Shown here piece after piece: positions 1-16,377 of a DNA stretch of 64,000 bases. A model generated the notes under the pieces. That model was not told the origin of the DNA, did not search any database, and saw only the letters and a program-made list of their open reading frames with translations. The first letter of the stretch is position 1; every line of letters begins with the position of its first letter. Source of the DNA: a virus; the IMG/VR virus record IMGVR_UViG_3300009151_000031. The stretch is one strand, 5' to 3'. The position numbers and the translations under genes were made by a program.

Positions 1-297
1 AACCGGAAAGCTACTGCCCACAGTGATCCCTGAGACCGGACTATATCCCTGTGATGTAAAAACATTTAAAGTTTGATGTGCTTTATCAAACCAAAGTTGT
101 CCTTGTAAATTTGTGCCAACTGGCGCCGAGTTACTAGCAAAGTTTTCTAGCAAATATACTAAATTTTCAGTAAGAGCTTGCCCGTATCCTACGCGATTAG
201 GACCTGCTAAAGTTAAATTTGTTGCAGTTACATCAAACCCGCCGTCGGCAATGGTAGCCAAGGGTGAGTTATCAAATTTTCGTATCGTATATGCCAT
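1..297 (-). CDS. Virion structural (tail fibre/baseplate-associated) protein, 5' part only; runs off the window edge
   Basis: Not in the ORF track. Manual translation from ATG at 297 gives MAYTIRKFDNSPLATIADGG...YGQALTENLVYLLENFASNSAP...GQLWFDKAHQTLNVF, open to base 1. It is paralogous to the N-terminus of 3323..4927 (ENFIKLLQNFAS...GTLWYD). Confidence 0.8.
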   Translation of the reverse strand, partial: MAYTIRKFDNSPLATIADGGFDVTATNLTLAGPNRVGYGQALTENLVYLLENFASNSAPVGTNLQGQLWFDKAHQTLNVFTSQGYSPVSGITVGSSFPV

Positions 298-330
298 ATT
301 TTAATTGCTACCTATCATTATACTTATTTA

Positions 331-1890
331 TTACTTTGCAGTTAGGCTAGTCCTACCCACATTTAGAAACTTGTGTGTAACGTACCCATTGTTAACTGTA
401 ACTTCATTTCCGCCCAAAAATGCTGGCGAAACACCACTATATTGTACCACCACTATTCCTGACCCGCCATCACCTGCATCTGTCATATTGCTATGTGCTG
501 ACCCGCCACCACCGCCACCAGTTCCGTCTACTCCATGGCCTCCATTGCCGTTGCCGCCCCCAAATACAGCAACGCCACTTGGCCCTGAGCCGCCGCTGCC
601 TTGCTCTCCATATCCGCCGCCACCGCCTCCAGCAACTTGTAACCCAAGATATGTAATACCAAATCCGCCGTCGCCGCCTTGATTACCATTGCTTTGATGA
701 CCAGTGCCTCCAGCACCGCCACCACCACCTCCACCAGCTTGTCCGTAACCTTGCCAAATTCCTGCACCCCCGGAATTTCCCTGTCCTGGTATGCCGCTTC
801 CGCCACCGTGTGTGTTTACATATCCGCATCCGCCTCCGCCCGATCCACCGGATCCGGCAGTTTCGCTGGCTGTACCATATCCGCCGTTTCCTCCTCCAAT
901 GGCAAGAAACCAGCCATCGTCGTATTGTATAGGATCTGTCATACGGGTGTGCCATACTACATTGCCAGGTGGATCATATAGTGCGGCCGCAAAACTTGCT
1001 GGACCACCATCATTTAATGCCTGACAGGTAATTGTTATAATTCCTGCAGGTAAATTAATATAGTTTGAATTGGTCAATCCCCAGTCATCATTTGCACCAA
1101 CTACGCTACCATTGATACTTACTTGTATGTGATTATCTGCAGACACTATTAACTGATATGTTTGTGCTACAGGAATATATGCTTGATAGTTTGCAGTCAC
1201 CCAGGACCCAACCGGACTTACAAAATCTGGACTAGTCCATACTCCGTAAGTATTTAAAAATCCGTTATAAACAGGATACGACGCTGGATATACTGCAACA
1301 TCGACACCGGCTTGGCTGGGTGCAGTTGAATTCAAACCAAAATAACTATTGTTGCCACCGGCATTTGCACCGCCACCTGCGCCAACGATTGCATTGTATG
1401 TTAGTCTAGAATCTAATAGGATCTCTTTTGCATATACAACTCCGCCAGCTCCGCCGCCCCCGCCACCTTCCCATCCGTAGCCAATACCACCACCACCACC
1501 ACCAGCTACTACTAAAATATTTGCTCGTACATTGGGTGGCCAGAATTGTTTCCAATCACCGTTTACATTTACAAATCCAGCTTTGGTCCTAGAATACGGA
1601 CCTTGAGGGTACGCTATTAATGTTTCATCTCCGGTTACGGTATGAGTAATAATGCTGTCAGATGTCGTGATAGTGCCACCGGAATATAATGGTGCACCGG
1701 TATAGGAATTGTAGGTTATTACAGCAGAACCAGGTCCGCCAGGGTTGTTAGCTGAACTAACCGATAATCCTGCGGGTAAATCAGCACCATCAGAACCCGT
1801 GAAGCCACCATCGTCACCACCTCTAATGGAACCGCCTGCTCCCCCAAGTTGTCCGCCGCCGCCTCCGCCGCCGCCTGCTCCATCTGCCAT
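331..1890 (-). CDS. Glycine-rich tail-fibre-like protein with an inserted beta-sandwich (lectin-like) domain
   Basis: 519-aa ORF with VVAGGGGGG...GGAGG and GSGGSGIVVVQY Gly-rich fibre motifs. A non-Gly ~120-aa insert (SADNHIQVSING...DGGPASFAAAL) is present, and an AAGGA RBS precedes the start. Confidence 0.75.
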   Translation of the reverse strand: MADGAGGGGGGGGQLGGAGGSIRGGDDGGFTGSDGADLPAGLSVSSANNPGGPGSAVITYNSYTGAPLYSGGTITTSDSIITHTVTGDETLIAYPQGPYSRTKAGFVNVNGDWKQFWPPNVRANILVVAGGGGGGIGYGWEGGGGGGAGGVVYAKEILLDSRLTYNAIVGAGGGANAGGNNSYFGLNSTAPSQAGVDVAVYPASYPVYNGFLNTYGVWTSPDFVSPVGSWVTANYQAYIPVAQTYQLIVSADNHIQVSINGSVVGANDDWGLTNSNYINLPAGIITITCQALNDGGPASFAAALYDPPGNVVWHTRMTDPIQYDDGWFLAIGGGNGGYGTASETAGSGGSGGGGCGYVNTHGGGSGIPGQGNSGGAGIWQGYGQAGGGGGGGAGGTGHQSNGNQGGDGGFGITYLGLQVAGGGGGGYGEQGSGGSGPSGVAVFGGGNGNGGHGVDGTGGGGGGSAHSNMTDAGDGGSGIVVVQYSGVSPAFLGGNEVTVNNGYVTHKFLNVGRTSLTAK

Positions 1891-1899
1891 TTTGTTTCC

Positions 1900-2304
1900 T
1901 TACTTTCCTGTTTCTAGGGTTTCTAACATTGCTAAAATTTCGCTGTATGCTTCTACATTTTTACCATCACGCACTTCTGCAATAATTGGGCGCACATAAC
2001 GTATTGTTATGTCCATCCATAGATCTGTATGATCTCCTGGTTCATCGTTAATAGCCTGAACTATTTTGCTAGCACGAATATAATAATTGAGAACTTTTTC
2101 ACCAGGCATTACTGCTCGAAAATTTTGTAAATATTCAACATCTACATCATCATGTGGGTCACCATTTTTAGTTAGAGCATTATAAAAAATGCAACTATCT
2201 TCGCGACTCAATAAAGTAGTTATACAAGTTTCTTGATTGCCAGTATCATCACAGTGAGCACATGCTTCTCTGTCTTTTAAAAACTCTTCTAAACTCATTC
2301 CCAT
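1900..2304 (-). CDS. CFI-box-CTERM-like domain protein
   Basis: 134 aa. The pattern C-I-T-T...VEYLQNFR...YYIRASKIVQAIN...RPIIAEVRDGKNVEAY resembles the CFI-box family pattern (CxI..., LRxFRD, YY..aP.iv.ai); recognised by eye only. Confidence 0.5.
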   Translation of the reverse strand: MGMSLEEFLKDREACAHCDDTGNQETCITTLLSREDSCIFYNALTKNGDPHDDVDVEYLQNFRAVMPGEKVLNYYIRASKIVQAINDEPGDHTDLWMDITIRYVRPIIAEVRDGKNVEAYSEILAMLETLETGK

Positions 2305-2305
2305 G

Positions 2306-3319
2306 TTATTTGACTCCTGCTAGTAACCAGAATACACCAAATGTAGCCCACATTATGTAACCTAGTGCTACACTCTTGGTTGGTTCTGTTGTTTTTGTAT
2401 ACTTACCGATCATGCGGCTTACCCACATACCAGTTTTCATAATAAGTTTGCCGGCACGATTATCTGTTTCACCTACACCCATTATATAGGCCATATGTTC
2501 CGCCCACGGTGTGGCAATGCGTCTTGCCCAGCTAATTGCCATGTTACGTTGTGCTTGATTGCGTTTATCTTTGTCTCGGATCCAGAACATGCATTGTGGA
2601 CCATCTTTGTCCATCCAATCAACTACAACCGATGCCCAACGTACATAACCATAGTATGCATATGGATCTGTGTCTCGTAAATACTGTCCAAATCTTTCGT
2701 CTGCTTCATATATATTGTCTGACAAATATCCAAGTTCGTGTAACTTGGTACAGATAATCTTACAGCCACCACCGCCACCGTGCTCGCCACCGGATGTTTT
2801 ATTGCCGCCTGCACCGCCTGCAATAGCACCAGAACTTGCATACCCTTGGCTCGGTTGCCCATTACTATTATTTCCACCACCACCACCACCACCACCGCCG
2901 GCTGCGACAACAGTAACAGTACCATCAATTGATATAACAGTGGCAGCTCCGCCACCACCACCAGATCCTGACCAACCTTCTCCACCAGTACTACCACCCG
3001 GGCCGCCATTGTAACCCAAGGCGTTGCCACCACCACCACCACCACCATTGCCGGACCCGCTTGATCCGCCTGCGCCAGGTCCGCCTACATAAACTTGAAT
3101 ATTTTTACCAAACGGAATAGTTAATGTACCTGTTAATTGATGTCCGGCAGATCCTGGGTACCCGCTGTGACTATCATTGCCTCCAACTCCGCCCCCGGCA
3201 CCTTGTACCTTTAGACTAAGAGCTAGTGTAGTCGGAATTGGTATGTCGGTACGAATGTAAGGCATAACAACTGAATGCCAATTCCCATCTGCGCCTTTAT
3301 AATATATGCCGCGGGACAT
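2306..3319 (-). CDS. Gly-rich fibre N-terminal half fused to a GGGGG-CKIICT domain with a C-terminal hydrophobic helix
   Basis: 337 aa. Residues 1-185 are Gly-rich fibre repeats; C186 starts a non-Gly helical domain ending in SVALGYIMWATFGVFWLLAGVK. Confidence 0.7.
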   Translation of the reverse strand: MSRGIYYKGADGNWHSVVMPYIRTDIPIPTTLALSLKVQGAGGGVGGNDSHSGYPGSAGHQLTGTLTIPFGKNIQVYVGGPGAGGSSGSGNGGGGGGGNALGYNGGPGGSTGGEGWSGSGGGGGAATVISIDGTVTVVAAGGGGGGGGGNNSNGQPSQGYASSGAIAGGAGGNKTSGGEHGGGGGCKIICTKLHELGYLSDNIYEADERFGQYLRDTDPYAYYGYVRWASVVVDWMDKDGPQCMFWIRDKDKRNQAQRNMAISWARRIATPWAEHMAYIMGVGETDNRAGKLIMKTGMWVSRMIGKYTKTTEPTKSVALGYIMWATFGVFWLLAGVK

Positions 3320-3322
3320 TGA

Positions 3323-4927
3323 TTACCCGCCGATCTGGAACCAAAAGTCTCCAGTGACTCCGCCAGTTGGCGGTAATGTAGAAACAGTATAATTAAATTT
3401 TTGTCCTGCTATTGCACCAACAACAAATTGTGTAGTTGCTATATTTCCGCTGTTGTCTCCTGCATAAGAAGAATGTCCCATTGTAGACCAAACTGGCATA
3501 TTGGTAGTTGGTGCAGTTGGGATACCAGTAAAATGCGGACTATCGATATTTGCTAAAGGTATCAGAGCATTTGTTAATTGTACAATATTGCCATGAAGAA
3601 CATTTAAGTCAGGTGTAATGGTTGTATTAATGTAAGATTCAACATTTGAAATACGAAGACCTAATGTATTGCTTACGTATGATATCTGTACATTTGCAAG
3701 ATCACGAGTCTGTTGTAGACCGAGTGTTAATGCGTTATTTGTTGTTGTAATTTGCTCACCAACATGAGTGTTCATTGCCACGTTAGATGATACTATGGCA
3801 GCGTTTGCCGCTGTGACATTTGCATTGGTAGTTGCTTGTAAGTATGTTATGTTAGCGTTGGTGTTGGTAACAACTGCACTGATATTACCAATGTAGTCTG
3901 CGTAAACTGCCTGTACGTTGGCATTTATTTGCCCAACTGCGGTATTTAAACTATTGATAATAACAGTTTCAGTTGTGTCAACGTAATTCTTTGTGGCAAT
4001 ACCACGAGAATAAATTGGATCAGCGTTAACATAAGCATGTCCGGTATTACCACTAAAAGACAATCCACGAATGTTTCCATTGGTAGAAGTGTTAATAAAG
4101 AATTCTACGTTGCCACCAAAGTTTTTATTTTGTAAAATTAACGAACCGTTAGCAGTAGATATGTTTGCATTACTGAGAACTAAATTACCTGCAATATTAA
4201 CATCGCTTGCAAAACTTGTAGCAATATCATTACGAGCAAATACTGTTGGACTTAGTCCGCCAACAGTATTACTGTTAGTTGCTGTGCCATGTAGTATTGC
4301 AATGTTACTTAAATTTACACCTGGTTGAATTGATGTGAAACTGGTATAGGCTGTAGATATTACAGAATTTACTGTAAACACTGGATCAATACTTGTTACA
4401 CTAACCAGTTTATTACTAATGTATTCGCCAACAACAATATGTGTATTACCAGTGGTGTCTGTGATCGATTCAACAAACGGACCGCTCTTGCCTTGGCTAG
4501 CTGTATACGCAGGGCCAATTAATTCCCAGGCAGTACCATTCCAAGTGCGTAATTGTTGATTAACTGAATCCCACCATTGGTCACCAGTGTGTGTAACTAC
4601 AGGTGCAGTATTGCCAACTATACGTTGACTAGCCGGAATAAATTCAATGCCATCGTATACATTTAAAATATTGTTAGCAGTATCGTACCATAATGTGCCA
4701 GGTAGCAACAACAATGCATTTTGACTTATATCTGGTGGCGAGCTACTGGCAAAATTTTGCAATAGTTTAATAAAGTTTTCATTTTGAATTTCACCGTAAC
4801 TAGGATAGTTACGACCAATCAATGTTACACCAGTACTGGTATCGAGTGTGCCGTCTTGTAACACACCCAATGGCATCGTTGGAGTTATTAGTGCCGATCC
4901 GTCTGTTTTATTAATAGGGTATGTCAT
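3323..4927 (-). CDS. Virion structural/tail fibre protein with a coiled-coil stalk
   Basis: 534 aa with GRNYPSYGEIQNENFIKLLQNFAS, GTLWYD and GDQWWD motifs, an Asn/Ala heptad region, ANIDSPHFTGIPTAPT (a fibre motif) and a C-terminal GDFWFQ. Confidence 0.75.
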   Translation of the reverse strand: MTYPINKTDGSALITPTMPLGVLQDGTLDTSTGVTLIGRNYPSYGEIQNENFIKLLQNFASSSPPDISQNALLLLPGTLWYDTANNILNVYDGIEFIPASQRIVGNTAPVVTHTGDQWWDSVNQQLRTWNGTAWELIGPAYTASQGKSGPFVESITDTTGNTHIVVGEYISNKLVSVTSIDPVFTVNSVISTAYTSFTSIQPGVNLSNIAILHGTATNSNTVGGLSPTVFARNDIATSFASDVNIAGNLVLSNANISTANGSLILQNKNFGGNVEFFINTSTNGNIRGLSFSGNTGHAYVNADPIYSRGIATKNYVDTTETVIINSLNTAVGQINANVQAVYADYIGNISAVVTNTNANITYLQATTNANVTAANAAIVSSNVAMNTHVGEQITTTNNALTLGLQQTRDLANVQISYVSNTLGLRISNVESYINTTITPDLNVLHGNIVQLTNALIPLANIDSPHFTGIPTAPTTNMPVWSTMGHSSYAGDNSGNIATTQFVVGAIAGQKFNYTVSTLPPTGGVTGDFWFQIGG

Positions 4928-4933
4928 GTTCTA

Positions 4934-5623
4934 TTATCCGCTTAAATTAGTTAATGTTTGAATTCTTACAGTATAATCGATTTGAATTAAACGATTCAAC
5001 GCTTTTTGCACTGGGTGGAATACAACGTGTGTTAATAGTAGTCCAGTAGATGTTAGTCCACTTGTACCATCAGTACTACGACCGCGTAATCCCAGTTCGT
5101 CAAAAACGTATTGACCGTTTAGGTCTTGGCTGTTGTCAAATGCTTGCTGTCCGCTAGGCTCGCCGTAATCTAGTAGACAAGTAACTAAAATATCTGTGTA
5201 CAATGTACCAGGAATATGACTGATTGTCATTTTATTATTAACTGGATCTGGGTTAGTAATAGCAGTATTATCAACAATCTTTGCGTATGTTGGGTTATAC
5301 AAATTGGCGTTCTGACCCACAGTATTTGTAGGCAAGTATGTAATAATACCAGTTGGATCAACACTTGTGCCGCCGTTGCCAAAGTTCATTTCATAGATAA
5401 AGTTTTGTCCTTTATCAGCAACAGAATTGGCCAGCGCCACTGAGAAGTTTTCGTAGTGGATAGCGTTTGGCTTATCAATAAAGACTTCGTTGGTCTTTGG
5501 ATCGAATATCTTGATATGCCCGCGGATATAAATTCCGGACGATTCGTTTGGGCTTTGTTGTGTATTTTCCACTGCTTTTTCCTCTAATTTGTTTAAATCA
5601 TTACTTGTATCAGTATTTATCAT
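4934..5623 (-). CDS. Conserved baseplate-associated virion protein
   Basis: 229 aa with FGNGG, FDELGL and LLTHVVFHPVQK motifs, directly downstream of the giant wedge gene (ATGA overlap). An alternative GTG start at 5572 has an AGAGG RBS and an upstream TAAATA (5614-5619). Confidence 0.7.
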   Translation of the reverse strand: MINTDTSNDLNKLEEKAVENTQQSPNESSGIYIRGHIKIFDPKTNEVFIDKPNAIHYENFSVALANSVADKGQNFIYEMNFGNGGTSVDPTGIITYLPTNTVGQNANLYNPTYAKIVDNTAITNPDPVNNKMTISHIPGTLYTDILVTCLLDYGEPSGQQAFDNSQDLNGQYVFDELGLRGRSTDGTSGLTSTGLLLTHVVFHPVQKALNRLIQIDYTVRIQTLTNLSG

Positions 5624-8600
5624 GGTGTATATCCTGGGCTTGCTAATAGGAACTGCGCCTGTACTGTGGTGCTATTTACTAGGCCTGTGCCTGTTGTTGC
5701 GTTACTTACGCCCGGGGTGTACCAGCTGGTATCCTGCATTGTTAGGTTTCCGCTGATATTAGCGTATGTCGGAGTACTAATTGGGATAACTTGCGTTAAA
5801 CTTGAGTCTACGACCCGAGCACCAGTTAAATGTAAAGATACACCGGGAGTACCATCTACAGCACGTCGAATTTGTCCAAGTACATTGTTTACTGTATCAT
5901 TGGTATAGTAAGTGATTTTTTCACCGCCTATGAATACTACACCAGGAATTGCTAATCCAGGATTAGGAATTGGTAACACTGAACTGTTAACAACATGAAT
6001 GTTGCTGTCAGTAATTGCCAAATTACTAGCCAATGCTGTAGTATTTGCCGCACTAATTCTATAGTAAGTTGTAACTTGGTTTATATCTGTAAAGATACGG
6101 AAAGCATAATCATTGGTGCCCGGATTAACATTTGAGAATACTTTCATATTCAAGCTATCGTACATACGTCCAGGTAGTAACTCTTCTGGTGCATAGCTAC
6201 TAAATCTTCCAACATACTCGCCGCCGTCTACTATAATATCTGCCGGGTTTACACCCAAACTACTTGTGTATAAACTTGAGATAGTTGCATCAAATCCGCT
6301 GGCCACATTGCTTGCTGGTGAGCCAACGGTGACTGTTGTGCCTGAATATGTTCGTAAATTACCACCCTCAATTATAACACCGGGGTAGCTTAGTCCAGCA
6401 TAAGTTACACGATCATACTTAATTGTTGTAGCAACACTACGTACAAGATTATGTCCATTATTATTGCCATCATAAACGTTTTTAAGTACTGCACGGGCTT
6501 GTGCGCCAGAGCCAGTTCCGTTAATAATAATATCCGGAATTGATGTGTAGCCCGAGCCAGCATCGGTAATCACAATAGTTGCAAGGCCACCACTACCATT
6601 GATAGTTGCATACCCTTTTGCACCTGTGCCACCACCGCCTGTAATTACAATTTGAGGTGCTGTTAAGTAGCCACTGCCTGGTAAATCAATTACAGTATCA
6701 ACTACTCTATATTTGTAGTTATTATTCCATTGGCTGTATATGCTGTTGCTAGCACTTAATGTAGTGGCATCGTAACTTTGTTCTCCGCTTGGACTACGAT
6801 ATACTCCCAACTTGGCATCCCAGTATGGTGGCAAATCAAAGTCAGTAATATCGCTAACATATGAATCATTGCCAATATAGTCAACTACGTATTCGCGAAT
6901 TACTGTACGATAAGGCTTAACTTCATTGATGTAATTTAAATAGAAGTTTTGATTGTCAGGAATGTAACTTGGGAACTCCTGCAACTTGCGAATACTCTGA
7001 GTAGCACTGATGAAACTAGTCTTAAATGCCCAATCAATATTTTTTTGTTCTGTTAATATGTACTTGATTAATACAAAGAACAATTCGTTATAGTTGCCGG
7101 CCAGGTCATCAATGAAGATTTCTTTTTGCATCGACAACAAAATCTGACGCAATTCAAGCGCCGGAATGTCTGTTTCAATTCCTTGCATTTGAACTGTACC
7201 GTCTTGGATACCAACTGTTGTTTGTTCTAAATTAGAATCAATATAATATATTACAAATTTACCATTGCCGCTATCTGTTACTTTAATATAAGTGTTTGGC
7301 TGCAATGTTAGTTTGCCAAACTCTAAGTTATTAGCAACTGTAACGTTAATTGTTGTAGTTGGGTCAAATGTTGCATCATACCAATCAGCATATTGCCAAT
7401 ATAAATTAGTTTTATAAGTTTGTACCCAAGGTGATCCATTTGGGCGAGTTGCTACTGACCAATTTGTGCCATCCCATGTATAAATTGCCCACTTAGTAAG
7501 ATTGTTACTATCGCTTTTAACTAGTACAGAATATCCTGAAGATATTAAATTAGTATCTACGTAGCCAAGCTCATCAAACGTTTCAACTGATATCAAGTAA
7601 GTACTTAGACTAGAAACAGGATACTGCTCGCTACTATTAAGAATAGTCATAACCTTACGTTGAGTTACTGGGTATGCTAATAATTTTGCATTTACTAATG
7701 TGATTACATTATATAATGCTGTAACGACGTCAATAACAATTGACTGTCTTGGACGGATAGAAAGTCCGTAACGTCTACCAGGTGGCAACGCAGGATCTGG
7801 GACCGGATTTCCGTCGCGATCAATTCCTGATAAACTATCATTGATTTTAGCAATAATATTTTCTGGTAATTGGCTAGTTGGGTTGCCTTCTTGTACTAAT
7901 GCATATTCGCTGTGGACCAACGCTGTTTGCTTCGCTTGTACATTTGATGCACCAAGTTGTATTACGCTACTTTGTCCAACTAATGTGTGGCTGGCATTGT
8001 ATACTGCCACAGTATCATTACGCAATACAGCCGTATAAGGAATACCCTGGCTCTGCGGATTTTTAATAGCTTCAGCAATACTGTAAATGCTGTTATGTTT
8101 AGATTTATCTACAGTCTGAATATTTTTAACCCAATAATAATAAGTGGCGTTAACTACACCGTTAGGTGTAACATATCCATATGTGCTATATGACGAATTG
8201 TCTGGATACATTGGTACACCATCACTGGTGTAATCACTAGGTAATTGGCTACTTGCAATCCATTGGTATACGTCAACACTAGATCCCGGGAACTGGTCGC
8301 CCCAATGGTTTAATCGATAAATTAATGCATCTTGTTCGTAATTAATATAACGAACAGTATCTAAGTTCCACCAAATTGTTCCTACTTGATTTGGTCCCCA
8401 ATGTATTGTTTGATTTACAACATTGGTTCCTGCATTATACAGGGCAGGATCGGTTCCTCTTTGGAAGTCAATATCTTGACCAAATGCATTTAATATTTTT
8501 CCTTTTGCTGGATCAATGTAGTCTAATGCGGCTAATAAATTATCATTGTTTTTGTTATAAATTAATGTGCGACCAATACTGTCAATGTCAACTATTGGCA

Positions 8601-11600
8601 TTTGTGTTCTTGTTTGATTCCACGCCTTTGCTGATGTAGAATTCTTAAACACGTAGCCGGCACCATAATTATTTGTTGTACCAGGAGCACCAACAACTAT
8701 TACATTGCTAGTAACATCAATAGCAAACCCATAATTATCATTATTAGCTAACTGTGCTTCTAATTCTTGTATGTAAGCATATGAGTTACCAATTGGCTCA
8801 AACAAATATGTTGCGCCACTGTTATAAATGTAATCAACAAAGTTTGTAGTGTCTGAATCGATTACAGTTTCATCATCGTCAAACGTAGTATGTTCTTCTG
8901 CAGGAGAACCGATGCTACCAACAGCCAATACATTTCCATTTGCACTTACACTGATGCTAGTGCCAAATTTTCCAATTTCGTTAGCAGGGTGTGCAATTGA
9001 TTCTGTAAACGTATAGGTATTTCCGCCTAGTGTGTAACGTTCAACTACGCCGTTTGCAATGCCAGACTTTAAGGATCCAGGAACACCAATATATAAATTA
9101 GTACCAGTGCTATCAATATCTATACTTGCACCAAAGTTGGCACTTTGATTGTTGTACTGGCTGGTTAGTGTTGATTGCGTTTTACTAAATGCGTTTGTAA
9201 TTAAGTTTCCACCGTACACATAAACATTTCCAGCTTGTGTGTTGCCATTGGTAGCGTATGGTGCACCGATGATTACTACATTACCAGTGGCATTTGTTTT
9301 AACTATATTAGTGGTTGATCCAGTATTTTGAATTACGTTGGCTAATACATATTTTACATTTGCTGAACTTGGGGTAGTATTTGCTTTGTAAATATGCACA
9401 GATGTGTTGCCGCCAATGGCTAATATATTTCCATCGGTGCTCATTGAAATGCTTGTTACATTGCCAACTAAGTTTGCGCCGGTAATAGTTTGTAGTGCTG
9501 TAATTACATTACCGTTTTGACGATAGATATAAACATTAGAGCTACTTGCTACACTTAATAAATTTCCTCGGCTGTCAATTGCTGTACCAAAGTTAGAATC
9601 AATCGATGTTAATGTTTGTGTAGATCCTGTTGTTATTGGCGTTACAAATACTTGCTTGCTGCCAGGACTACCTGAGAATATGTAAGTATTGTCTGAACTA
9701 ATAGTTACTGCGGAACCAAATTGTCCAGCAGTAGATATATTACCAGTTACCTGGCTACGATTCTTAGTAGACCATGGTTGTTTAAATGTATAAACACCCC
9801 ACCCGTCCACTGATGCATTGTCTACCCATACCGTATCGCCAGTTATCCAGCCATTCTTAGGAATGGTGTGATTTTTAAAGTCACTTAATGAGTTAATTTT
9901 AGCACTATCTAATGTATATACTATCCCTGATCCGGTAATAGTCAATGCTCTTATTAATGTTTGTAGAGGACTTATTGATGTTAATTTGTCTAGGCGTGTA
10001 TTATCAATTTGAATAATAACGTTTGTTGTATTTGGTACACCAATAACTTCATATACTCCATCAAATGCCGAGCTAAAGTATTTTAACACAAGAATATCAC
10101 CAACACTGAATGTATGTGTATAGTTAAATGTTAATTGAGCATTTGAATCAAGAATATATGTTAGAGATTCGGCTGTTAAATTGGACTCATTGACTCTTAA
10201 AATATTCCAATTATTCTCAATGTCTTTTGCTACCCACGCATAGTCGCCTGCACCTAGTGCAGTAAGATCTAATTCGGGTTTTGTAATATCAAATATTGTG
10301 TAGTCAACATCATTTAAATTTACGTAACCGACGTCTGGTAAATCTGTCATATAAACTGGATCAACGCGATTACTATATAATGAGGTAGTTGTTACTAATG
10401 TATTACTTGCGGTATACACATTTGAATTTGTGCATAATGCGTTGCCGTTTAAGCTAACAATAACATTAGCGGCACTATATGTGCCAGCAGACGTAAATAC
10501 CGCTGGGTTAGTATTAAATACACTTTGGTCTAAGATAAAATCTTTATAGATATTATTATTTAGATTTCCATACTTACCAACATTAAATGCCCATTCTTCG
10601 TATACACTAATTTCACCACTGACGTTATTAAAATTGGCTTTAGTTAATGCTGTAATTGCATTCATTGTGCCTTTTTGTTTAATATACCCTTGGTAAAATT
10701 TTGTTTGTGTAGGAATACTAATACCTAGGTCAGTTAAGTATTGTCGTTGACGGAATCCTAATAATCCTGCAGAATATTTTTGTAATGTTTCGTTTGTAGG
10801 AGGATTATCTACATCGTAGAAGTTAGAAAATTGTTGTGCATTTAATCCAAAGCTCTGCAATAAACCAGTCTGGATACTATCGTAAGGAATTTGTGTCCAT
10901 AGTGTAGGAATAAAGTTTGCGCCTGCAGATATTTTTTGAGTAGCGGTATAATAAAAATTATTATATTGTACCACGTCTCCTAAATTATAGTCTCTTCCGG
11001 ACTGCCACACATCGATATTTGGGTCGCTATAGATATAGCCGGCGGCACTCAATGAGCCATCCCATGCCCCAGTTTTAGTTCCTGCTATTTTTAAACGACT
11101 CTGCCGTGTTCCAGTTGATGGAATATAAATAATATCGCCAAAATCATCAACATTGTCAAATACTAATACATGTTCGTATGCTGTTACGTTTAACTTTGCG
11201 TAACAAATTGTAGTTCCATTTAAGGTAGATATCTTAAAACGGTTTCCATTAACTGCACTATTAGTTCTTACAATATTAAAATTGTTATTTTTAATAGGAG
11301 CAAAATTTTGATCTAATATTTTATTACCATTGGAAGTATTTGTAACTTCATCAACGATTACTCCCGCAGTTAACAATGTCAACGATGTTGCTACTGGATT
11401 TAACACAATAACCGAAGTAGTATTCCACCCCTGCTGGCTCCAATACATTAACTCTTTAATACTTAGTAACCAGTTCTGCTCTTCTTGCAAATCTGTGTTA
11501 TACGTATCAAGTTGGAATCCAATTGCCGTTAAATATCGTTGGTAACTTACGATAAAATCTGCTACCTGCTGTATACTAGAAAATACAGTACCGTACGGAA

Positions 11601-14600
11601 TAACCGAAACAGAGCTTTCACTACTTTGATATAAACTAATTGTTAATCCATTGACCGTAAGTGGCTGTTTCTTATTATCTGCAATGCTTGGTATAATAGT
11701 AAAGAACGGGTTTGTTGGGTCATACCCAGTTACACTCCACCCAGTGGTAGTTTTTTCAACAATTACTGCACTATATACTGCTGATCCAACCGGAACCGAT
11801 TTGTTTAAATAGATATTGTAATTGGTGTCTGGGATGATCACACTACCACTAGTACTACCGGGACTTGTTTGTTCAGCACTTACTGTGATAATTGATTTGT
11901 CAGTAAAGCCACCAACCTTATAATTTAGTTTGACCGAGGTATTGGTAAAATAACTAGTCAGTGTAGAGATTGGATCGATGCCGGTATTTTTAATACTATC
12001 GGCAATCCAATTGATATATCCACTGGTGCGATCGACTGTGCCACTGGCGCTGTTGCCGTTAACTGTTAATAAGTTTGGTGCAATTTTTCTATTAGAAGCA
12101 TTAGAAAATTGTCCAGTTTGCGGGCTCTTAAAGAAACGACTTGTATCTAATTGTGTAGCAAAATATTGAGCTGGACGAAGTAATGCTAGTGTTAATTGTA
12201 CAGAATATGGATAATCACTGCTACGACGCCATGCCACTTCGGCGGGGCTGTGTTGACCCGAAGAAAATGCATCACTCGAAGTAGATGAATGATATTTTTT
12301 AATTAACGGAATTTGTGTTGGGTCTATTAGATTACCCGCAGAGTCTACTGGGATAAATTTAGTCAACCCTGAACGAGCAAATCTATCATCAGTATACGGC
12401 GCACCGTCATTCCATATGTAGCCTGATTCTAAGTCTTCCCATAGTAATATGTTTCCGCTAGTATACGGTCCGTTTCCGTAACGACTTTCCCACCATAGTG
12501 GTTTGCTACTAAATCCTAGCATAATCCAAGGAGTTAAGTTAGGCGTATCTGTGTCAAACCAATAGTTATATATAGCTCTCCATGATCCTTGTAGATTAGA
12601 TCCGTCAATTACATCTGGACAGCTACCGTAGTTCCAGGTCCATGGGTTATTAACATCGTAGAATTTATTTTCTGTATAATTAACATTATTAGTGCCTACC
12701 CAGTTCATAAAACTTTGTGAGATTACTTGATTAAATTCAGTTAGACTGTAATCCCCTTTTCTAAATCTTCCAGGAATAGTATTGTATAAATCAATTTCAT
12801 TGTTATTGTAATCGGCTTTAATGTTGTTGTAGATACGACGTTCCAATTCTAATAGATAGTCGTCGCGGAAGTCCTTGGTGTATATGCCAGTAGTTTGATC
12901 GTAAGTTCCAAATGCAGGTGTTATGCTACCATCGTGTCCACGAATAACCATTGTAGGTGTTTGATATGTATTATCTAAATATATTTCTGGAAGAAACTTT
13001 GGATATAGCCCTAGCTTGGTTGGAGTTTCCGGAATGTAATTGCCGTCGGTATTACCATAATCTCTGATAACAATTTGAGTTTTATTTGCTACGTCTGCGG
13101 CAGCAAATTCTCGAGTAAAGATAATGGTAGGACTAATTTTATTAAAAGTATAGTCTACTCCAACTGTTTGTTGTATTCCGTTTACATACACTAGCACAGC
13201 ACGATTGCTTAATATTGTGTTATTAAATAAAGAATTAATTTCGTAGTTTACCTGACGAGCATTCAGTACAGTATAGGTCACTGTAGAAAATCCGTTGCCT
13301 TGCGGAACCATGTCACTGTAATACCACGGAAAACTAGAATTCTTTAAAGAATTAATATTTTGTAATATAACGTCTACACCAATTGATGGGTTATTGTAGT
13401 TTATGTTTGAAGTTGTATTACATAAAGTTAAAAATTTATGTTTAAATTTTGTATATTCTTTTTTGGCCAATGTTATTGCATCAACAAAACTAACTGTTGG
13501 GTCGTTTAAAAACGATAATGCGTAAACCAACGGTGCCGAATGCTGGCGCAACGTACCACCTTGATCTTTAAGATAGTTGTCCTGTATTGGTATTGGGTTA
13601 CTAGGATCAGATGTTGTGTTTTCTATTAATTTATTATAGTGTGTTCTAAGTTGACCCAACGTAATAGATTTAAAGTTTTCATTCAATGGATTTAAATCTA
13701 AGTTATCCGGAACTTCATAATATGCAAGTTTACTTGATTCTGTGCTAAAAATCTTGACATCAATTTTGTCATTGATTGCTGGTATAGTCGTAAAGACGAT
13801 TGCGTGATACACACCATACTTTATTTGTTTATAATCCATTTCGTTGACTAGCAACTTATTATTTAGATAAACCTTAAGGTGTGGTACTGTTTGTTCGTCA
13901 ACCGGTAATACATCAATTTGTACAAACGCAGTTTGTACTCCATTTAATTCAATTACGTACCCATCAAAGAATTTTGTAAATACTTGAAATTGTAATGTGG
14001 GTTCAGCCGATGTTGCCCAGTTAGTTAATTTTTCTGTTTTGTCTAATCCGATATTTTTAACAAGGTACCCGGTATTAACACTAATTTTTCCGTTACTGGT
14101 TGAAAAAGAATCTGTATCGTAGTAGTTGTTAAAAACAATATCACCAATATTATTAAATGTTTGGTATGTTAACGGAAATCCTAATAGGCTATCATTGGTA
14201 CCGGAAGTAGCAACTGCGTAATTAAAGAATTTAGTACCGGCAAATGTGGTGCCTGGGTACACCGTTATATCACTAAAGCTATAACCATCATTATCTACAA
14301 TATCAAACAGTGGTGCTTGATTAACATTGGTCTTCTGTTGAGATTGTGTCCATGTGCTTCCATCAAATGCAAAAGTATATCCTTTGTGGGAACCTTTTGT
14401 AACTAGTACATTTTGTCCAGGTAATACTGGATCCGACGCTACTTTGTTTAGGGTCAGATACGGGCTATTAATAATACTTTGGTACTGTACTTCCCATACT
14501 TCGTTTACAATAGCAGTATCAAAGTCTTTGGCAAACACAATAGTATCGCCATTGACCAAGTGAATACCATCAATTGATGCTGTTGTTTTACCCTCGTAAT

Positions 14601-16377
14601 CATTGAACGCATCGGTTGGCGTAGTTATAATATAACTAACCGATGTAGTTGCTTGTTGACCATAATTGAATAATTGTAAATTTGGTTCAAATTCAATAAT
14701 GCTACGTCGTGCAGATATGTCATTTCCGTAGTCTGCTACAGAATTATTATACTTGGCAGTAGACGTAATTACATCTCGATGGAACCAACGATTGTATCGC
14801 GACCATGGGTTACGGTCTTGACTAGCTCTATTAATTGTAATGTAATCAGGAGATTTGTTAATGTTTTGACCAAATGATTCTGGTACAATTAATTCATCAA
14901 CTGGGACCAGGTCTATGCCTGTGCCAACTCCCTCAACATAGTAATCTTTGTTAGTGTATGTACTTGGAGTAACAGAGCTATCAAAATGAATTTTCATCCC
15001 ATTGGCAAAAATTACTCCATTGGGGCTGGTATATCCTGCACTACCAATAATATCATTGGGTACATCAATGGTACTCGTTGAATTATCAACTAATTTTATT
15101 TGCCCTGTAAATTGAGGGTTACTACTATCTTGGTAATATAGATAATTAACGCTGGCTGTCATTACCGGCACAATCTGGTAACGCATGTTATTATCTAACC
15201 AAAACTGATTACTTGCATAAGTCTGGCCAGACGAAATAAAAACTTTTTGCTGAGGTTGTATTTGAGTGTCAGGCACAATCTGAAGTACTGAATCGGTTGC
15301 GCTAATACGTACTATATTAAGGCGCCAGATATTTGATCTAGTTGCTTTAGGAATAATACCAGTAACTGGATTGGCATTTGGGTTTGCTTTACCTGTAGCT
15401 AAATCTGGCGGCAACGGATCTGTTGGGGTAGTCCAATCTGTGTCCGCAACTTGGCCGCCTACAAATACAATAGTTTTGTTTTGTAAGTTATTGTTAATAC
15501 CATCCAATCCTGTTGGAAATTTGCTTATGAAGGTACTTAGTAATTGATTTTGTATATCTGTATATTTAAATGCCACTGCGGCATCGGTGCTACCGGTAGT
15601 AGGTCTAATAATTGGCATGTTAACATAAAAGTCTTGCGCTGTTGCCAACGGAACTTTAAATGTAATATCTCCGCTGTCAGTGCCGTTGTTAGTTACGCCA
15701 AATACCTGACGAGTTGTGACTGTAGAAATATTGGGATCTTGACCGGACGTACCAGGACTAGTTTGTATCCAGAATTTAAAACTTGGTTGATTAATTTTAA
15801 ATGTATATGTTCCGCCACGTGCCAATGTAAGTTGTGTATTAGGGTGCGGGCCTATGCCAGTGAATGTATATCCGCCAACTGAAGTGCTACGTGTTACTTC
15901 ATATGTAGCTTGATACGGAACTTGATTAGTTGAAAGAGATACAGAAGCCGGGCCATTGGGTAACCAATAGTAATTATAATAATTTACAAACTTATCATAA
16001 TCAAATTGACCATCGTAATTATAACTGTCAGATGAAAATAGTCTTTGATGGTTTGTTGTTAATAACTGACTGCTACCAGTATTTGTTGCAACGCTATTTA
16101 ATAAATCCAGGTATCCAGCAGTAAATTTAATATTTTTATTTTCATCTGTTACTACTACCCCGGATTCCAATTGGTAATTAGATCTTGATGTAATTGATTC
16201 GGGCACATAGTTATCACCTAGTTTATATGTAGGAGCAAACTTGCGTCCGATGTATCCGTTAATTGGAGTGTTTATTGCGCCAGTATACAACTGGTCCATG
16301 GTAGCACCAAGGAAACGTTTATTCGTGTCTGTGCGAAAAGCTTCTGGTAAAAAATTAATAGTGTTTAGTAGTGCCAT
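5620..16377 (-). CDS. Giant baseplate wedge protein (T4 gp7-like position) with an FG-GAP-like propeller
   Basis: 3585-aa ORF coupled to gp6 (TAATG overlap). It has LNYINEVKPYRTVIR and GTGAKGYATI..GSGY repeats typical of T4-like wedge proteins, plus FGxS/AIxx...GAPG repeats. Confidence 0.7.
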   Translation of the reverse strand: MALLNTINFLPEAFRTDTNKRFLGATMDQLYTGAINTPINGYIGRKFAPTYKLGDNYVPESITSRSNYQLESGVVVTDENKNIKFTAGYLDLLNSVATNTGSSQLLTTNHQRLFSSDSYNYDGQFDYDKFVNYYNYYWLPNGPASVSLSTNQVPYQATYEVTRSTSVGGYTFTGIGPHPNTQLTLARGGTYTFKINQPSFKFWIQTSPGTSGQDPNISTVTTRQVFGVTNNGTDSGDITFKVPLATAQDFYVNMPIIRPTTGSTDAAVAFKYTDIQNQLLSTFISKFPTGLDGINNNLQNKTIVFVGGQVADTDWTTPTDPLPPDLATGKANPNANPVTGIIPKATRSNIWRLNIVRISATDSVLQIVPDTQIQPQQKVFISSGQTYASNQFWLDNNMRYQIVPVMTASVNYLYYQDSSNPQFTGQIKLVDNSTSTIDVPNDIIGSAGYTSPNGVIFANGMKIHFDSSVTPSTYTNKDYYVEGVGTGIDLVPVDELIVPESFGQNINKSPDYITINRASQDRNPWSRYNRWFHRDVITSTAKYNNSVADYGNDISARRSIIEFEPNLQLFNYGQQATTSVSYIITTPTDAFNDYEGKTTASIDGIHLVNGDTIVFAKDFDTAIVNEVWEVQYQSIINSPYLTLNKVASDPVLPGQNVLVTKGSHKGYTFAFDGSTWTQSQQKTNVNQAPLFDIVDNDGYSFSDITVYPGTTFAGTKFFNYAVATSGTNDSLLGFPLTYQTFNNIGDIVFNNYYDTDSFSTSNGKISVNTGYLVKNIGLDKTEKLTNWATSAEPTLQFQVFTKFFDGYVIELNGVQTAFVQIDVLPVDEQTVPHLKVYLNNKLLVNEMDYKQIKYGVYHAIVFTTIPAINDKIDVKIFSTESSKLAYYEVPDNLDLNPLNENFKSITLGQLRTHYNKLIENTTSDPSNPIPIQDNYLKDQGGTLRQHSAPLVYALSFLNDPTVSFVDAITLAKKEYTKFKHKFLTLCNTTSNINYNNPSIGVDVILQNINSLKNSSFPWYYSDMVPQGNGFSTVTYTVLNARQVNYEINSLFNNTILSNRAVLVYVNGIQQTVGVDYTFNKISPTIIFTREFAAADVANKTQIVIRDYGNTDGNYIPETPTKLGLYPKFLPEIYLDNTYQTPTMVIRGHDGSITPAFGTYDQTTGIYTKDFRDDYLLELERRIYNNIKADYNNNEIDLYNTIPGRFRKGDYSLTEFNQVISQSFMNWVGTNNVNYTENKFYDVNNPWTWNYGSCPDVIDGSNLQGSWRAIYNYWFDTDTPNLTPWIMLGFSSKPLWWESRYGNGPYTSGNILLWEDLESGYIWNDGAPYTDDRFARSGLTKFIPVDSAGNLIDPTQIPLIKKYHSSTSSDAFSSGQHSPAEVAWRRSSDYPYSVQLTLALLRPAQYFATQLDTSRFFKSPQTGQFSNASNRKIAPNLLTVNGNSASGTVDRTSGYINWIADSIKNTGIDPISTLTSYFTNTSVKLNYKVGGFTDKSIITVSAEQTSPGSTSGSVIIPDTNYNIYLNKSVPVGSAVYSAVIVEKTTTGWSVTGYDPTNPFFTIIPSIADNKKQPLTVNGLTISLYQSSESSVSVIPYGTVFSSIQQVADFIVSYQRYLTAIGFQLDTYNTDLQEEQNWLLSIKELMYWSQQGWNTTSVIVLNPVATSLTLLTAGVIVDEVTNTSNGNKILDQNFAPIKNNNFNIVRTNSAVNGNRFKISTLNGTTICYAKLNVTAYEHVLVFDNVDDFGDIIYIPSTGTRQSRLKIAGTKTGAWDGSLSAAGYIYSDPNIDVWQSGRDYNLGDVVQYNNFYYTATQKISAGANFIPTLWTQIPYDSIQTGLLQSFGLNAQQFSNFYDVDNPPTNETLQKYSAGLLGFRQRQYLTDLGISIPTQTKFYQGYIKQKGTMNAITALTKANFNNVSGEISVYEEWAFNVGKYGNLNNNIYKDFILDQSVFNTNPAVFTSAGTYSAANVIVSLNGNALCTNSNVYTASNTLVTTTSLYSNRVDPVYMTDLPDVGYVNLNDVDYTIFDITKPELDLTALGAGDYAWVAKDIENNWNILRVNESNLTAESLTYILDSNAQLTFNYTHTFSVGDILVLKYFSSAFDGVYEVIGVPNTTNVIIQIDNTRLDKLTSISPLQTLIRALTITGSGIVYTLDSAKINSLSDFKNHTIPKNGWITGDTVWVDNASVDGWGVYTFKQPWSTKNRSQVTGNISTAGQFGSAVTISSDNTYIFSGSPGSKQVFVTPITTGSTQTLTSIDSNFGTAIDSRGNLLSVASSSNVYIYRQNGNVITALQTITGANLVGNVTSISMSTDGNILAIGGNTSVHIYKANTTPSSANVKYVLANVIQNTGSTTNIVKTNATGNVVIIGAPYATNGNTQAGNVYVYGGNLITNAFSKTQSTLTSQYNNQSANFGASIDIDSTGTNLYIGVPGSLKSGIANGVVERYTLGGNTYTFTESIAHPANEIGKFGTSISVSANGNVLAVGSIGSPAEEHTTFDDDETVIDSDTTNFVDYIYNSGATYLFEPIGNSYAYIQELEAQLANNDNYGFAIDVTSNVIVVGAPGTTNNYGAGYVFKNSTSAKAWNQTRTQMPIVDIDSIGRTLIYNKNNDNLLAALDYIDPAKGKILNAFGQDIDFQRGTDPALYNAGTNVVNQTIHWGPNQVGTIWWNLDTVRYINYEQDALIYRLNHWGDQFPGSSVDVYQWIASSQLPSDYTSDGVPMYPDNSSYSTYGYVTPNGVVNATYYYWVKNIQTVDKSKHNSIYSIAEAIKNPQSQGIPYTAVLRNDTVAVYNASHTLVGQSSVIQLGASNVQAKQTALVHSEYALVQEGNPTSQLPENIIAKINDSLSGIDRDGNPVPDPALPPGRRYGLSIRPRQSIVIDVVTALYNVITLVNAKLLAYPVTQRKVMTILNSSEQYPVSSLSTYLISVETFDELGYVDTNLISSGYSVLVKSDSNNLTKWAIYTWDGTNWSVATRPNGSPWVQTYKTNLYWQYADWYDATFDPTTTINVTVANNLEFGKLTLQPNTYIKVTDSGNGKFVIYYIDSNLEQTTVGIQDGTVQMQGIETDIPALELRQILLSMQKEIFIDDLAGNYNELFFVLIKYILTEQKNIDWAFKTSFISATQSIRKLQEFPSYIPDNQNFYLNYINEVKPYRTVIREYVVDYIGNDSYVSDITDFDLPPYWDAKLGVYRSPSGEQSYDATTLSASNSIYSQWNNNYKYRVVDTVIDLPGSGYLTAPQIVITGGGGTGAKGYATINGSGGLATIVITDAGSGYTSIPDIIINGTGSGAQARAVLKNVYDGNNNGHNLVRSVATTIKYDRVTYAGLSYPGVIIEGGNLRTYSGTTVTVGSPASNVASGFDATISSLYTSSLGVNPADIIVDGGEYVGRFSSYAPEELLPGRMYDSLNMKVFSNVNPGTNDYAFRIFTDINQVTTYYRISAANTTALASNLAITDSNIHVVNSSVLPIPNPGLAIPGVVFIGGEKITYYTNDTVNNVLGQIRRAVDGTPGVSLHLTGARVVDSSLTQVIPISTPTYANISGNLTMQDTSWYTPGVSNATTGTGLVNSTTVQAQFLLASPGYTP

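Follow-up and report, generated by a model that had tools for sequence, protein, structure and literature searches.

The subject of this analysis is a group of three adjacent genes, called here g1, g2 and g3, of an uncultured freshwater T4-like phage. They lie in the window, the whole 64,000-nucleotide (nt) stretch of IMG/VR virus record IMGVR_UViG_3300009151_000031, and the metagenome runs that contain the phage are freshwater and lake runs. The products of g1 and g3 contain consecutive parts of one glycine-rich adhesin-type domain, which is encoded by a single uninterrupted gene in related phages, and a cassette that includes g2 separates the two parts. The minus strand carries every gene in window positions 1-16377, and the transcription order is a 3585-residue structural protein, a 229-residue phrog_11259 protein, a 534-residue fibre protein, g1, g2, g3, and a further fibre gene.

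The g1 product reads ...IAGGAGGNK, with K174 encoded by nt 2800-2798, and continues through the linker TSGGEHGGGGG into an unrelated helical domain that begins at Cys186. This domain of 152 residues opens with the letters CKIICTKL and is referred to here as the IICTKL domain. The sequence KTSGGEH is typical of g1-type genes, and the pattern KT[SY]GG(EH) is kept in the relatives P0072, P0076-P0079, and P0014 as well as in gene A of L002 (IMGVR_UViG_3300032282_001564), a 113-kb viral contig that is the closest relative of the window. A single base separates the g1 stop codon from the g2 ATG and nine bases separate the g2 stop codon from the g3 ATG, and a scan for sigma-70 promoters, terminators, and the T4 late box TATAAATA returned no promoter-like or terminator-like site that stood out between the three genes. 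Since the genes abut and no such site is apparent between them, co-transcription of g1, g2, and g3 is likely. The arrangement is not an assembly artefact, as an 18.9-kb contig from a separate study spans positions 300-3400 colinearly. A megablast search with window positions 1-5700 against 50,697 phage records gave no match. The features of the three genes are collected in Table 1.

Table 1. Features of the divided gene and of the cassette between its halves (positions in the window; aa, amino acids)
Feature	Position	Strand	Description
g1	3319..2306	-	337 aa; stop codon 2306-2308
g1 residues 1-174, 'socket'	2798..3319	-	Short N-terminal strand region and upstream part of glycine-rich domain 1, ending ...AGGNK
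Linker TSGGEHGGGGG	2765..2797	-	Its GGGGG-coding tract (2779-2765) forms the shared cassette's 5' edge
IICTKL C-terminal domain, g1 residues 186-337	2309..2764	-	All-alpha bundle
Last IICTKL helix, residues ~316-336, VALGYIMWATFGVFWLLAGV	2312..2374	-	Hydrophobic, membrane-anchor-like
g2	2304..1900	-	134 aa; sole gene separating both halves; TAA stop 1902-1900
g2, as cassette element	1900..2304	-	Encodes a small acidic partner of the IICTKL domain; Cys cluster at the N-terminus (C15, C18, C27, C38)
Spacer GGAAACAAA, g2 stop to g3 ATG	1891..1899	-	AAGGA ribosome-binding site; GNK in g3 frame
g3	1890..331	-	519 aa; starts MADGAGGGGGGGGQLGGAGG; N-terminus also given as MADGAGGGGGGGG
g3 residues 1-62, 'plug'	1705..1890	-	Absent end of glycine-rich domain 1: central poly-Gly loop and last strand GSAVITY
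g3 residues 63-121	1528..1704	-	'GG.ITT...ITH.V' hairpin motif and G.VNVNG.W linker joining both glycine-rich domains
g3 residues 122-485	436..1527	-	Complete second glycine-rich domain, PA14-like insert (about 200-320)
g3 C-terminal hairpin motif and stop codon	331..435	-	
Relocating cassette	1871..2780	-	Poly-Gly linker, IICTKL domain, g2, ribosome-binding site, ATG, first ~7 downstream codons; (GGN)n tract at each edge

Unsplit homologs and the position of the split

A preliminary description of this locus, made from the sequence alone, had proposed that an ancestral single fibre gene was interrupted here, and had advised a search for uninterrupted homologs that span the junction. This search was positive. 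P0249 (678 residues) was found with the first 125 residues of g3 and P0250-P0257 by a search around the P0249 junction, and in seven of these proteins, P0249, P0250 (916 residues), P0251, P0252, P0253, P0256, and P0257, the junction is present in one chain. An uninterrupted gene in related phages is also a mark of genes split by free-standing homing endonucleases, and the seven homologs provide it for g1 and g3 and support the proposed interruption of a single gene. The unsplit junction follows the pattern ...G-x-(N/D)-K, two to six residues, and then DGGGAGGGGGG..., as in ...GQNK-GN-ADGGGAGGGGGG....

The alignments place both edges of the split. In BLASTP, residues 8-175 of P0249 align to g1 residues 13-174 with 44% identity, and residues 202-504 align to g3 residues 26-316 with 48% identity (E 2e-64); residues 178-300 of P0249 align to g3 residues 2-110. 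The match to g1 ends exactly at the NK (nt 2798) where the preliminary description had seen the glycine-rich part give way to an unrelated domain, and its second observation, that g3 starts in mid-domain, is borne out by the alignment of the g3 N-terminus to internal residues of the unsplit homologs. The same follows from g3 itself: its N-terminal ~85 residues are similar to the end of the complete glycine-rich domain that lies farther along g3 and to the hairpin after that domain. The hairpin motif of g3 residues 63-121 is found again at the g3 C-terminus, and this segment is colinear with P0249 and P0250. Because glycine bias lowers the composition-adjusted BLAST scores for g1, the alignments were also compared with composition-preserving shuffles. 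The g1 segment 1-185 scored 400 against P0249, compared with 159 ± 11.5 for the shuffled sequences (z 20.9, with 0 of 200 shuffles as high), and the g3 segment 1-130 scored 274 compared with 75 ± 8.5 (z 23.5). A tblastn search with g3 against phages gave no match, and the low-complexity filter masks g3. In a joint alignment, four split-type genes (g3 of the window, P0247, P0248, and L002 gene B) start exactly at DGG, and 16 columns are invariant; the invariant plug columns include the non-glycine residues D3 and D26, and Y60 is nearly invariant. The gene is split in this phage, the split lies exactly after the NK of g1, and unsplit relatives exist.

The divided domain, called a fibre domain in the preliminary description, is better assigned as an adhesin-type TNF-like/polyglycine domain and not as a fibre shaft. 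Against the Pfam family PF21722 (Gly_rich_2), g3 scores 47.3 bits (E 3.3e-12), above the curated cut-off of 24.3 bits, and unsplit P0249 scores 48.9 bits. The g1 score of 13.3 bits, over profile positions of about 17-183 of 226, falls below the cut-off, as expected for a truncated copy. Domain 2 is contiguous in g3, where residues 124-190 correspond to profile positions 18-88 and residues 329-484 to positions 90-225, with an insert between. Domain 1 is divided between g1, up to residue 174, and g3 residues 2-62, and does not lie in a single polypeptide, as is normal for the PF21722 family. An AlphaFold2 (AF2) model of P0249 was confident over most of residues 21-290 (predicted local distance difference test score, pLDDT, mostly 70-94). 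[quoted passage not shown] The insert of the P0249 model matches PA14 sugar-binding domains (probability 1.0). In gp24 of cyanophage Pam3, which binds the host via a domain of this type, the lattice is centred on the first and last glycine loops (PMC9608196), and a domain without the last loop should thus be incomplete. It is g3 that supplies the last glycine loop and the last strand of domain 1. A literature search returned no paper mentioning PF21722.

A cassette that recurs at three split positions

The preliminary description had placed a two-part module of 907 bp between the halves. The stretch between the junctions, 2797..1891, does measure 907 nt, and the in-frame (GGN)n tracts at 2765-2782 and 1858-1875 are likewise 907 nt apart; the boundaries require correction, as nucleotide homology defines the cassette as 2780..1871, from poly-Gly to poly-Gly. 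Bounded in this way, the cassette includes both the g3 ATG and its ribosome-binding site. The homology comes from L002, in which positions 3985-4898 match window positions 2780-1871 with 83% identity over 914 nt (blastn) at a different split site. The junctions had also been read as direct repeats that encode GNK. The codons GGA AAC AAA are indeed present in frame before the g3 ATG, directly after the g2 TAA (1902-1900), where they overlap the AAGGA ribosome-binding site. The 10-nt direct repeat is identical at 8 of 10 positions and does not exceed chance, since GGAAACAAAATG with at most two mismatches occurs 9 times in the window compared with 10.1 expected. Most unsplit homologs have a Lys three residues before the conserved Asp, and the Lys of the window GNK lies at an equal distance from Asp3 of g3; the homologous stretch of L002 before gene B reads GGAAGCAAG-TA-ATG. 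The GNK repeat may be a relic of ancestral G-x-N-K codons and is indistinguishable from a ribosome-binding-site context.

The genes of L002 show the cassette at a second position. Gene A resembles g1; its IICTKL domain is highly divergent, and a g2 is missing there. The product of gene B opens with MADGGGG... and closes with one half of a glycine-rich domain (profile positions 3-114) and a 92%-identical IICTKL domain. Next come g2 and the 102-residue gene C, which is only the remainder of a glycine-rich domain. The stretch L002:1725-5184 appears to be a chain with two splits, in which A provides socket 1, B provides plug 1 and socket 2, and C, after g2, is plug 2 alone. The position between B and C (site 2) is found also in L048 and L102. 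In BLASTP against P0251, the N-terminus of B is significant (E 8e-05) and C is not, and site 2 is therefore based on Pfam profile coordinates and motifs. At site 3, represented by L098-L101, the upstream gene reads ...VLTVSVGGGGGGG before a linker and the IICTKL domain; this upstream end corresponds to P0249 residues 34-95 (z 3.6), and the downstream gene of 150-155 residues corresponds to P0249 residues 94-253 (z 9.8-13). Shortly downstream of the fragment-only gene in L098, positions 1376-2212 encode a secreted-looking protein of 278 residues in which a motif like that of DNA/RNA non-specific endonucleases (...DKGHMAPD...) was noticed by eye.

Cassettes that are 82-96% identical at the amino acid level occupy sites 1, 2, and 3. 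In a tree of IICTKL domains the split-site labels are interleaved, and the window copy has a site-3 copy as its sister (support 96/80), well away from the main clade of site 1; the well-supported branches force at least three changes for site 1, at least three for site 3, and at least two for site 2. The cassette recurs at three positions, and the presence of near-identical cassettes at different split sites implies that it relocates. Recombination in the (GGN)n tracts would be the simplest mechanism. The 18.9-kb contig from the separate study is 6 nt shorter at position 2769, within the g1 poly-Gly linker; two Gly codons are lost in frame, which indicates that the (GGN)n tracts vary in length between populations.

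Neither the IICTKL domain nor g2 had a match in Pfam, PHROG, or NCBIfam at E<=1. The same libraries and threshold revealed no HNH or GIY-YIG endonuclease in the insert, for which the protein atlas gave unnamed clusters only, and no CFI-box-CTERM or other curated C-terminal sorting model (NCBIfam, E<=1) was found in g1, g2, L002 gene A, or the cyanophage homolog. A search with the IICTKL domain returned 662 clusters (50% identity) at E<=0.001, and the domain was C-terminal in 150 of the 150 best matches listed, in proteins of 94-1859 residues. The AF2 model is a six-helix bundle (pLDDT 85-90) whose last helix (317-335) is hydrophobic. This helix remains hydrophobic across the relatives despite its varying sequence, and from this we infer a possible membrane location. 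Foldseek gave no convincing PDB match to the fold (best E 0.8), the best VIA-align result was a Z score of 6.0 over 105 residues (root-mean-square deviation 3.7 Å) to a helical region of a Salmonella effector, within the usual range for helical bundles, and in BFVD only uncharacterised relatives of the domain itself were recovered.

What precedes the IICTKL domain varies. It is usually a poly-Gly, poly-Pro, or poly-Arg linker, with Cys/Asn repeats on some proteins and a Hint domain in four, and the residue preceding IIC is not conserved (CK, CS, GK, GS, KK, SK). In the g1-type protein P0014, ...GQDKTSGGG is followed by a Hint domain (C...HN, Lys at +1) and then by IICTKL. Both P0014 and P0016 have such a Hint domain between a g1-type socket and IICTKL, and P0094 and P0035 have it before IICTKL on non-glycine or truncated N-terminal parts. 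The Lys at +1, shared by the Hint domains of P0014 and P0094, points to the cleaving rather than the splicing type, and this suggests that the IICTKL domain may be shed in the P0014 lineage. In P0022, P0026, P0075, P0085, P0102, and P0104, the IICTKL proteins carry N-terminal Cys-Asn repeat arrays (...NCNCNCN...) and not glycine-rich domains. In Synechococcus phage SynMITS9220M01 (L001:3669-5519, QJT70041.1), the linker before IICTKL consists of ~34 Pro and then 8 Arg, with no poly-Gly.

Of 50 distinct viral loci, 20 have a g2 homolog directly after the IICTKL gene, and so has SynMITS9220M01, in which the three-gene order is as in the window and the third gene starts MAKAGGGGGG. The N-terminal Cys cluster of g2 is missing from the short g2 relatives. 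At loci L026-L041 and L047 (for example L026:3962-4795), the g2 homolog has 273-280 residues, twice the usual length, and its extra fused part has no Pfam family. Scans of viral contigs with single queries (g2, the g3 N-terminus, and P0078) found one to two loci each, and a ten-sequence g2 alignment was too divergent for scanning. A fibre chaperone of the Tfa/Pam3 gp25 type would fit the position of g2 after a fibre gene; no sequence family was found for it.

Proposed reassembly of the divided domain and its alternatives

We probed the relation between the two halves with structure models. In the AF2 model of g1 alone, the glycine-rich part had pLDDT values below 50 (residues 79-185) and the IICTKL domain was confident. 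The complex of g1(1-185) with g3(1-125) gave an interaction prediction score from aligned errors (ipSAE) of 0.81 in 3 of 3 runs, compared with 0.00 for the best of three controls. For comparison, 58 of 80 solved complexes and 2 of 110 mismatched pairs attained the ipSAE mark; these counts apply only approximately since custom alignments were used. At least 91% of the contacts were common to the runs and the partner pLDDT was at least 79; the g1 half rose to a pLDDT of 81-83 with g3, compared with 67 with unrelated partners and below 50 alone. The tightest contacts join the first strand of g1 (34-41) to the GSAVITY strand of g3 (54-60), and g1 residues 175-185 are without confident contacts. 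The complex model supports a predicted non-covalent reassembly of g1 and g3 into one domain.

The arrangement is also maintained in nature. It is kept in L002, as genes A then B, in a Kyanoviridae cyanophage, and on an independent metagenome contig, and in L002 the pairing of a g1-type with a g3-type gene persists although the rest of gene B differs. The fragment-only genes (~150 residues) have ratios of nonsynonymous to synonymous substitution (dN/dS) of 0.10-0.15 at a dS of 0.7-0.9, and of 0.20-0.27 for more distant pairs. The corresponding values are 0.04 for the IICTKL domain, compared with the L002 copy, and 0.05 for g2. Purifying selection acts on the cassette and on the fragment-only genes, and its action on the latter argues against a reading of these as relics.

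Our preferred explanation, to which we assign a probability of about 75%, is a gene in pieces, a cassette-split adhesin whose halves complete domain 1 non-covalently as a g1:g3 heterocomplex. The ancestral gene would have encoded, in one adhesin, two receptor-binding domains of the TNF-like/polyglycine (Gly_rich_2) type. A cassette would have entered domain 1 after ...G-x-N-K, probably by recombination in (GGN)n tracts, bringing a poly-Gly linker, the helical IICTKL domain with its hydrophobic, membrane-like end helix, a stop codon, g2, and a ribosome-binding site with an ATG. In the g1 product, the initial ~5/6 of domain 1 would then be joined to the IICTKL domain, and the g3 product would consist of the last ~60 residues of domain 1, the linker, and the intact second domain with its PA14 insert. 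The g3 plug would complete the g1 socket non-covalently, with the g1:g3 heterocomplex as the adhesin, and the IICTKL domain on its flexible linker may serve, together with g2, in assembly or anchoring, possibly transiently.

Several points weigh against this explanation. The binding of g1 to g3 is a prediction from the structure model, and a pass of the complex model speaks for complementarity of the halves rather than for assembly in the cell. Halves of a known single-chain fold (ALK, Pam3 gp24) tend to pass through their likeness to solved structures. The composition-adjusted BLASTP comparison of g1 with P0249 reaches only E 0.63, so that significance comes from the shuffles and from colinearity, and the ancestral polarity, with the unsplit gene first, is taken from the family norm and not from a rooted tree. 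The roles given to the IICTKL domain and g2 are guesses, and a membrane-anchored domain on a virion adhesin would sit badly with a mature fibre if it were not removed, for which this copy has no recognisable cleavage module.

Other explanations were weighed against the same observations. The preliminary description had named two findings that would speak against a divided gene, homologs that are always separate and halves that align to the same part of the domain, and neither was obtained. Direct BLASTP of g1 against g3 gave no significant match and glycine-rich sequence aligns with almost anything, so that g1 and g3 might in principle be paralogs whose glycine-rich continuity arose by chance. 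This is refuted by their alignment to consecutive, non-overlapping parts of the seven unsplit homologs, with z >20 relative to shuffles; the two parts are consecutive halves, as judged from the alignments, and not paralogs. A reading of more weight, though still unlikely, takes the split as real and the halves as no longer cooperating, with g1 acting via its IICTKL domain, g3 via its second glycine-rich/PA14 domain, and the leftovers of domain 1 as relics. The complete second domain of g3, the lack of a confident fold for the g1 half alone, and the occurrence of the IICTKL cassette on many proteins without a downstream glycine-rich remainder would all agree with such decay. The plug, however, keeps the 16 invariant columns common to the unsplit homologs, genes that consist of the remainder only (92-155 residues; L002 gene C, L098-L102) persist with dN/dS of 0.10-0.27, and the conserved g1-type/g3-type pairing in L002 and the confident complex model are contrary to a loss of cooperation.

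The preliminary description had also considered reunion of the halves by protein ligation or by excision at the DNA or RNA level, and of its suggested routes only non-covalent reassembly has gained support, from the structure model. Covalent joining appears very improbable; it might, for instance, have the plug N-terminus resolve an acyl intermediate formed where the socket ends, with the IICTKL domain and g2 as ligation or sorting machinery. Hint domains form thioesters, the relatives P0014 and P0016 carry one between socket and IICTKL, and the downstream fragments have Gly-rich N-termini; the P0014 arrangement leaves acyl-transfer chemistry a small chance. In contrast, no Hint or intein match was found in g1, g2, or g3 of the window, and g3 has no intein C-half; the residue before IICTKL varies, the g3 N-terminus is M-A-D and not a free oligoglycine, and Foldseek and VIA-align of the IICTKL domain found no peptidase or transpeptidase fold. 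Still less probable is restoration of a single chain through deletion between the (GGN)n tracts in some genomes, RNA splicing, or ribosomal bypassing from AAA (2800-2798) to AAA (1893-1891). The in-frame tracts that flank the cassette, the instability apparent in the 6-nt linker variant, and the identical take-off and landing codons would suit it. There is, however, no intron or ribozyme match to Rfam 15 in window positions 1-6000 (both strands, E<=1), DNA contigs from three runs are colinear across both junctions, and contigs of one RNA run take in portions of g1, the g1/g2 boundary, and g3. Among the Logan contigs, none joins 2798 to 1890 or both flanking poly-Gly tracts, although contigs drop rare variants and a rare excised form is possible, and the sole apparent joints were 20-22-nt matches of GGN repeats. 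Bypassing would also proceed with no stop codon after the take-off codon and over 907 nt, far above the ~50 nt of T4 gene 60, and purifying selection on g2 and the IICTKL domain is strong. One contig of 376 nt, from a lake metatranscriptome library, covers 2801-3176 without difference and ends 3 nt from the junction beside a GGN repeat; its end at 2801 is probably an assembly break.

Beyond the non-covalent heterocomplex, we tentatively consider a broader scheme, which is rather more doubtful. Here IICTKL-g2 would be a new gene-splitting cassette that enters (GGN)n tracts of polyglycine adhesin domains by recombination, closes the upstream half with its own domain, and gives the downstream half a new start through its ribosome-binding site and ATG. 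Single-chain adhesins would so turn into plug-and-socket pairs, or into three-member chains such as L002 A-B-C, which phages can reshuffle to alter host range. The open socket would be held or anchored by the IICTKL domain and g2 pending arrival of the plug, with later shedding of the IICTKL domain, in some lineages through Hint cleavage.

Known split genes, related adhesins, and neighbouring genes

Split genes that arose from inserted mobile genes have been described in T4-like phages, namely nrdA with mobE in Aeromonas phage Aeh1, 39/60 with mobA in T4, and 43A/43B in phage 25 (PMC2988022), and experiments on NrdA and gp43 have shown that the two polypeptides reassemble (Edgell et al. 2010, PMC2988022). 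Similar to Aeh1 nrdA, T4 39-60, and phage 25 gene 43, the present locus is that of a T4-like phage in which inserted DNA places a gene that is contiguous in relatives in two cistrons. In contrast to the splits by mobE and mobA, this insert is without a recognisable homing endonuclease; it supplies the first half with a C-terminal domain in frame and the second half with a restart site, and it also encodes a small partner protein. What is split is a structural domain of an adhesin and not an enzyme, and the cassette, bounded by (GGN)n, is found at three or more positions. To our knowledge, the only genes of T4-like phages known to be split encode a few enzymes, and their splits are linked to homing endonucleases; a literature search found no paper combining gene fission with tail fiber and bacteriophage. 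The locus represents a second route to genes in pieces, in which a receptor-binding structural domain is split, at three places in relatives, by a cassette without a recognisable nuclease. Like split inteins, Hint, and bacterial intein-like (BIL) systems, two genes encode the halves of one protein, and some g1 relatives carry a Hint domain at the junction; unlike split inteins, the window copy has no Hint domain, intein halves, or +1 nucleophile, and nothing suggests splicing.

By profile, and by fold for the unsplit homolog, the divided domain belongs to the same family as Pam3 gp24/gp25, gp38 of Salmonella phage S16, the extracellular domain of ALK/LTK, and PF21722/PF12810. [quoted passage not shown] As in Pam3, where the chaperone gene gp25 comes directly after gp24, a small gene directly follows in the fibre cluster; no sequence similarity of g2 to gp25 or Tfa-type chaperones was detected. 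If the halves do reassemble, a polyglycine-lattice domain could be completed in trans, and multi-protein adhesins could be built from exchangeable parts; socket and plug would form a potential fragment-complementation pair for engineering. The IICTKL domain is common and uncharacterised, and its defined genetic context now eases its study.

At the head of the fibre cluster, positions 5620-16377 (minus strand) encode the 3585-residue structural protein, which has long repetitive stretches. In other phages (L007, L010-L016), relatives of comparable size, with parts of 1320-1486 residues in a DUF4815 context, end in an IICTKL domain.

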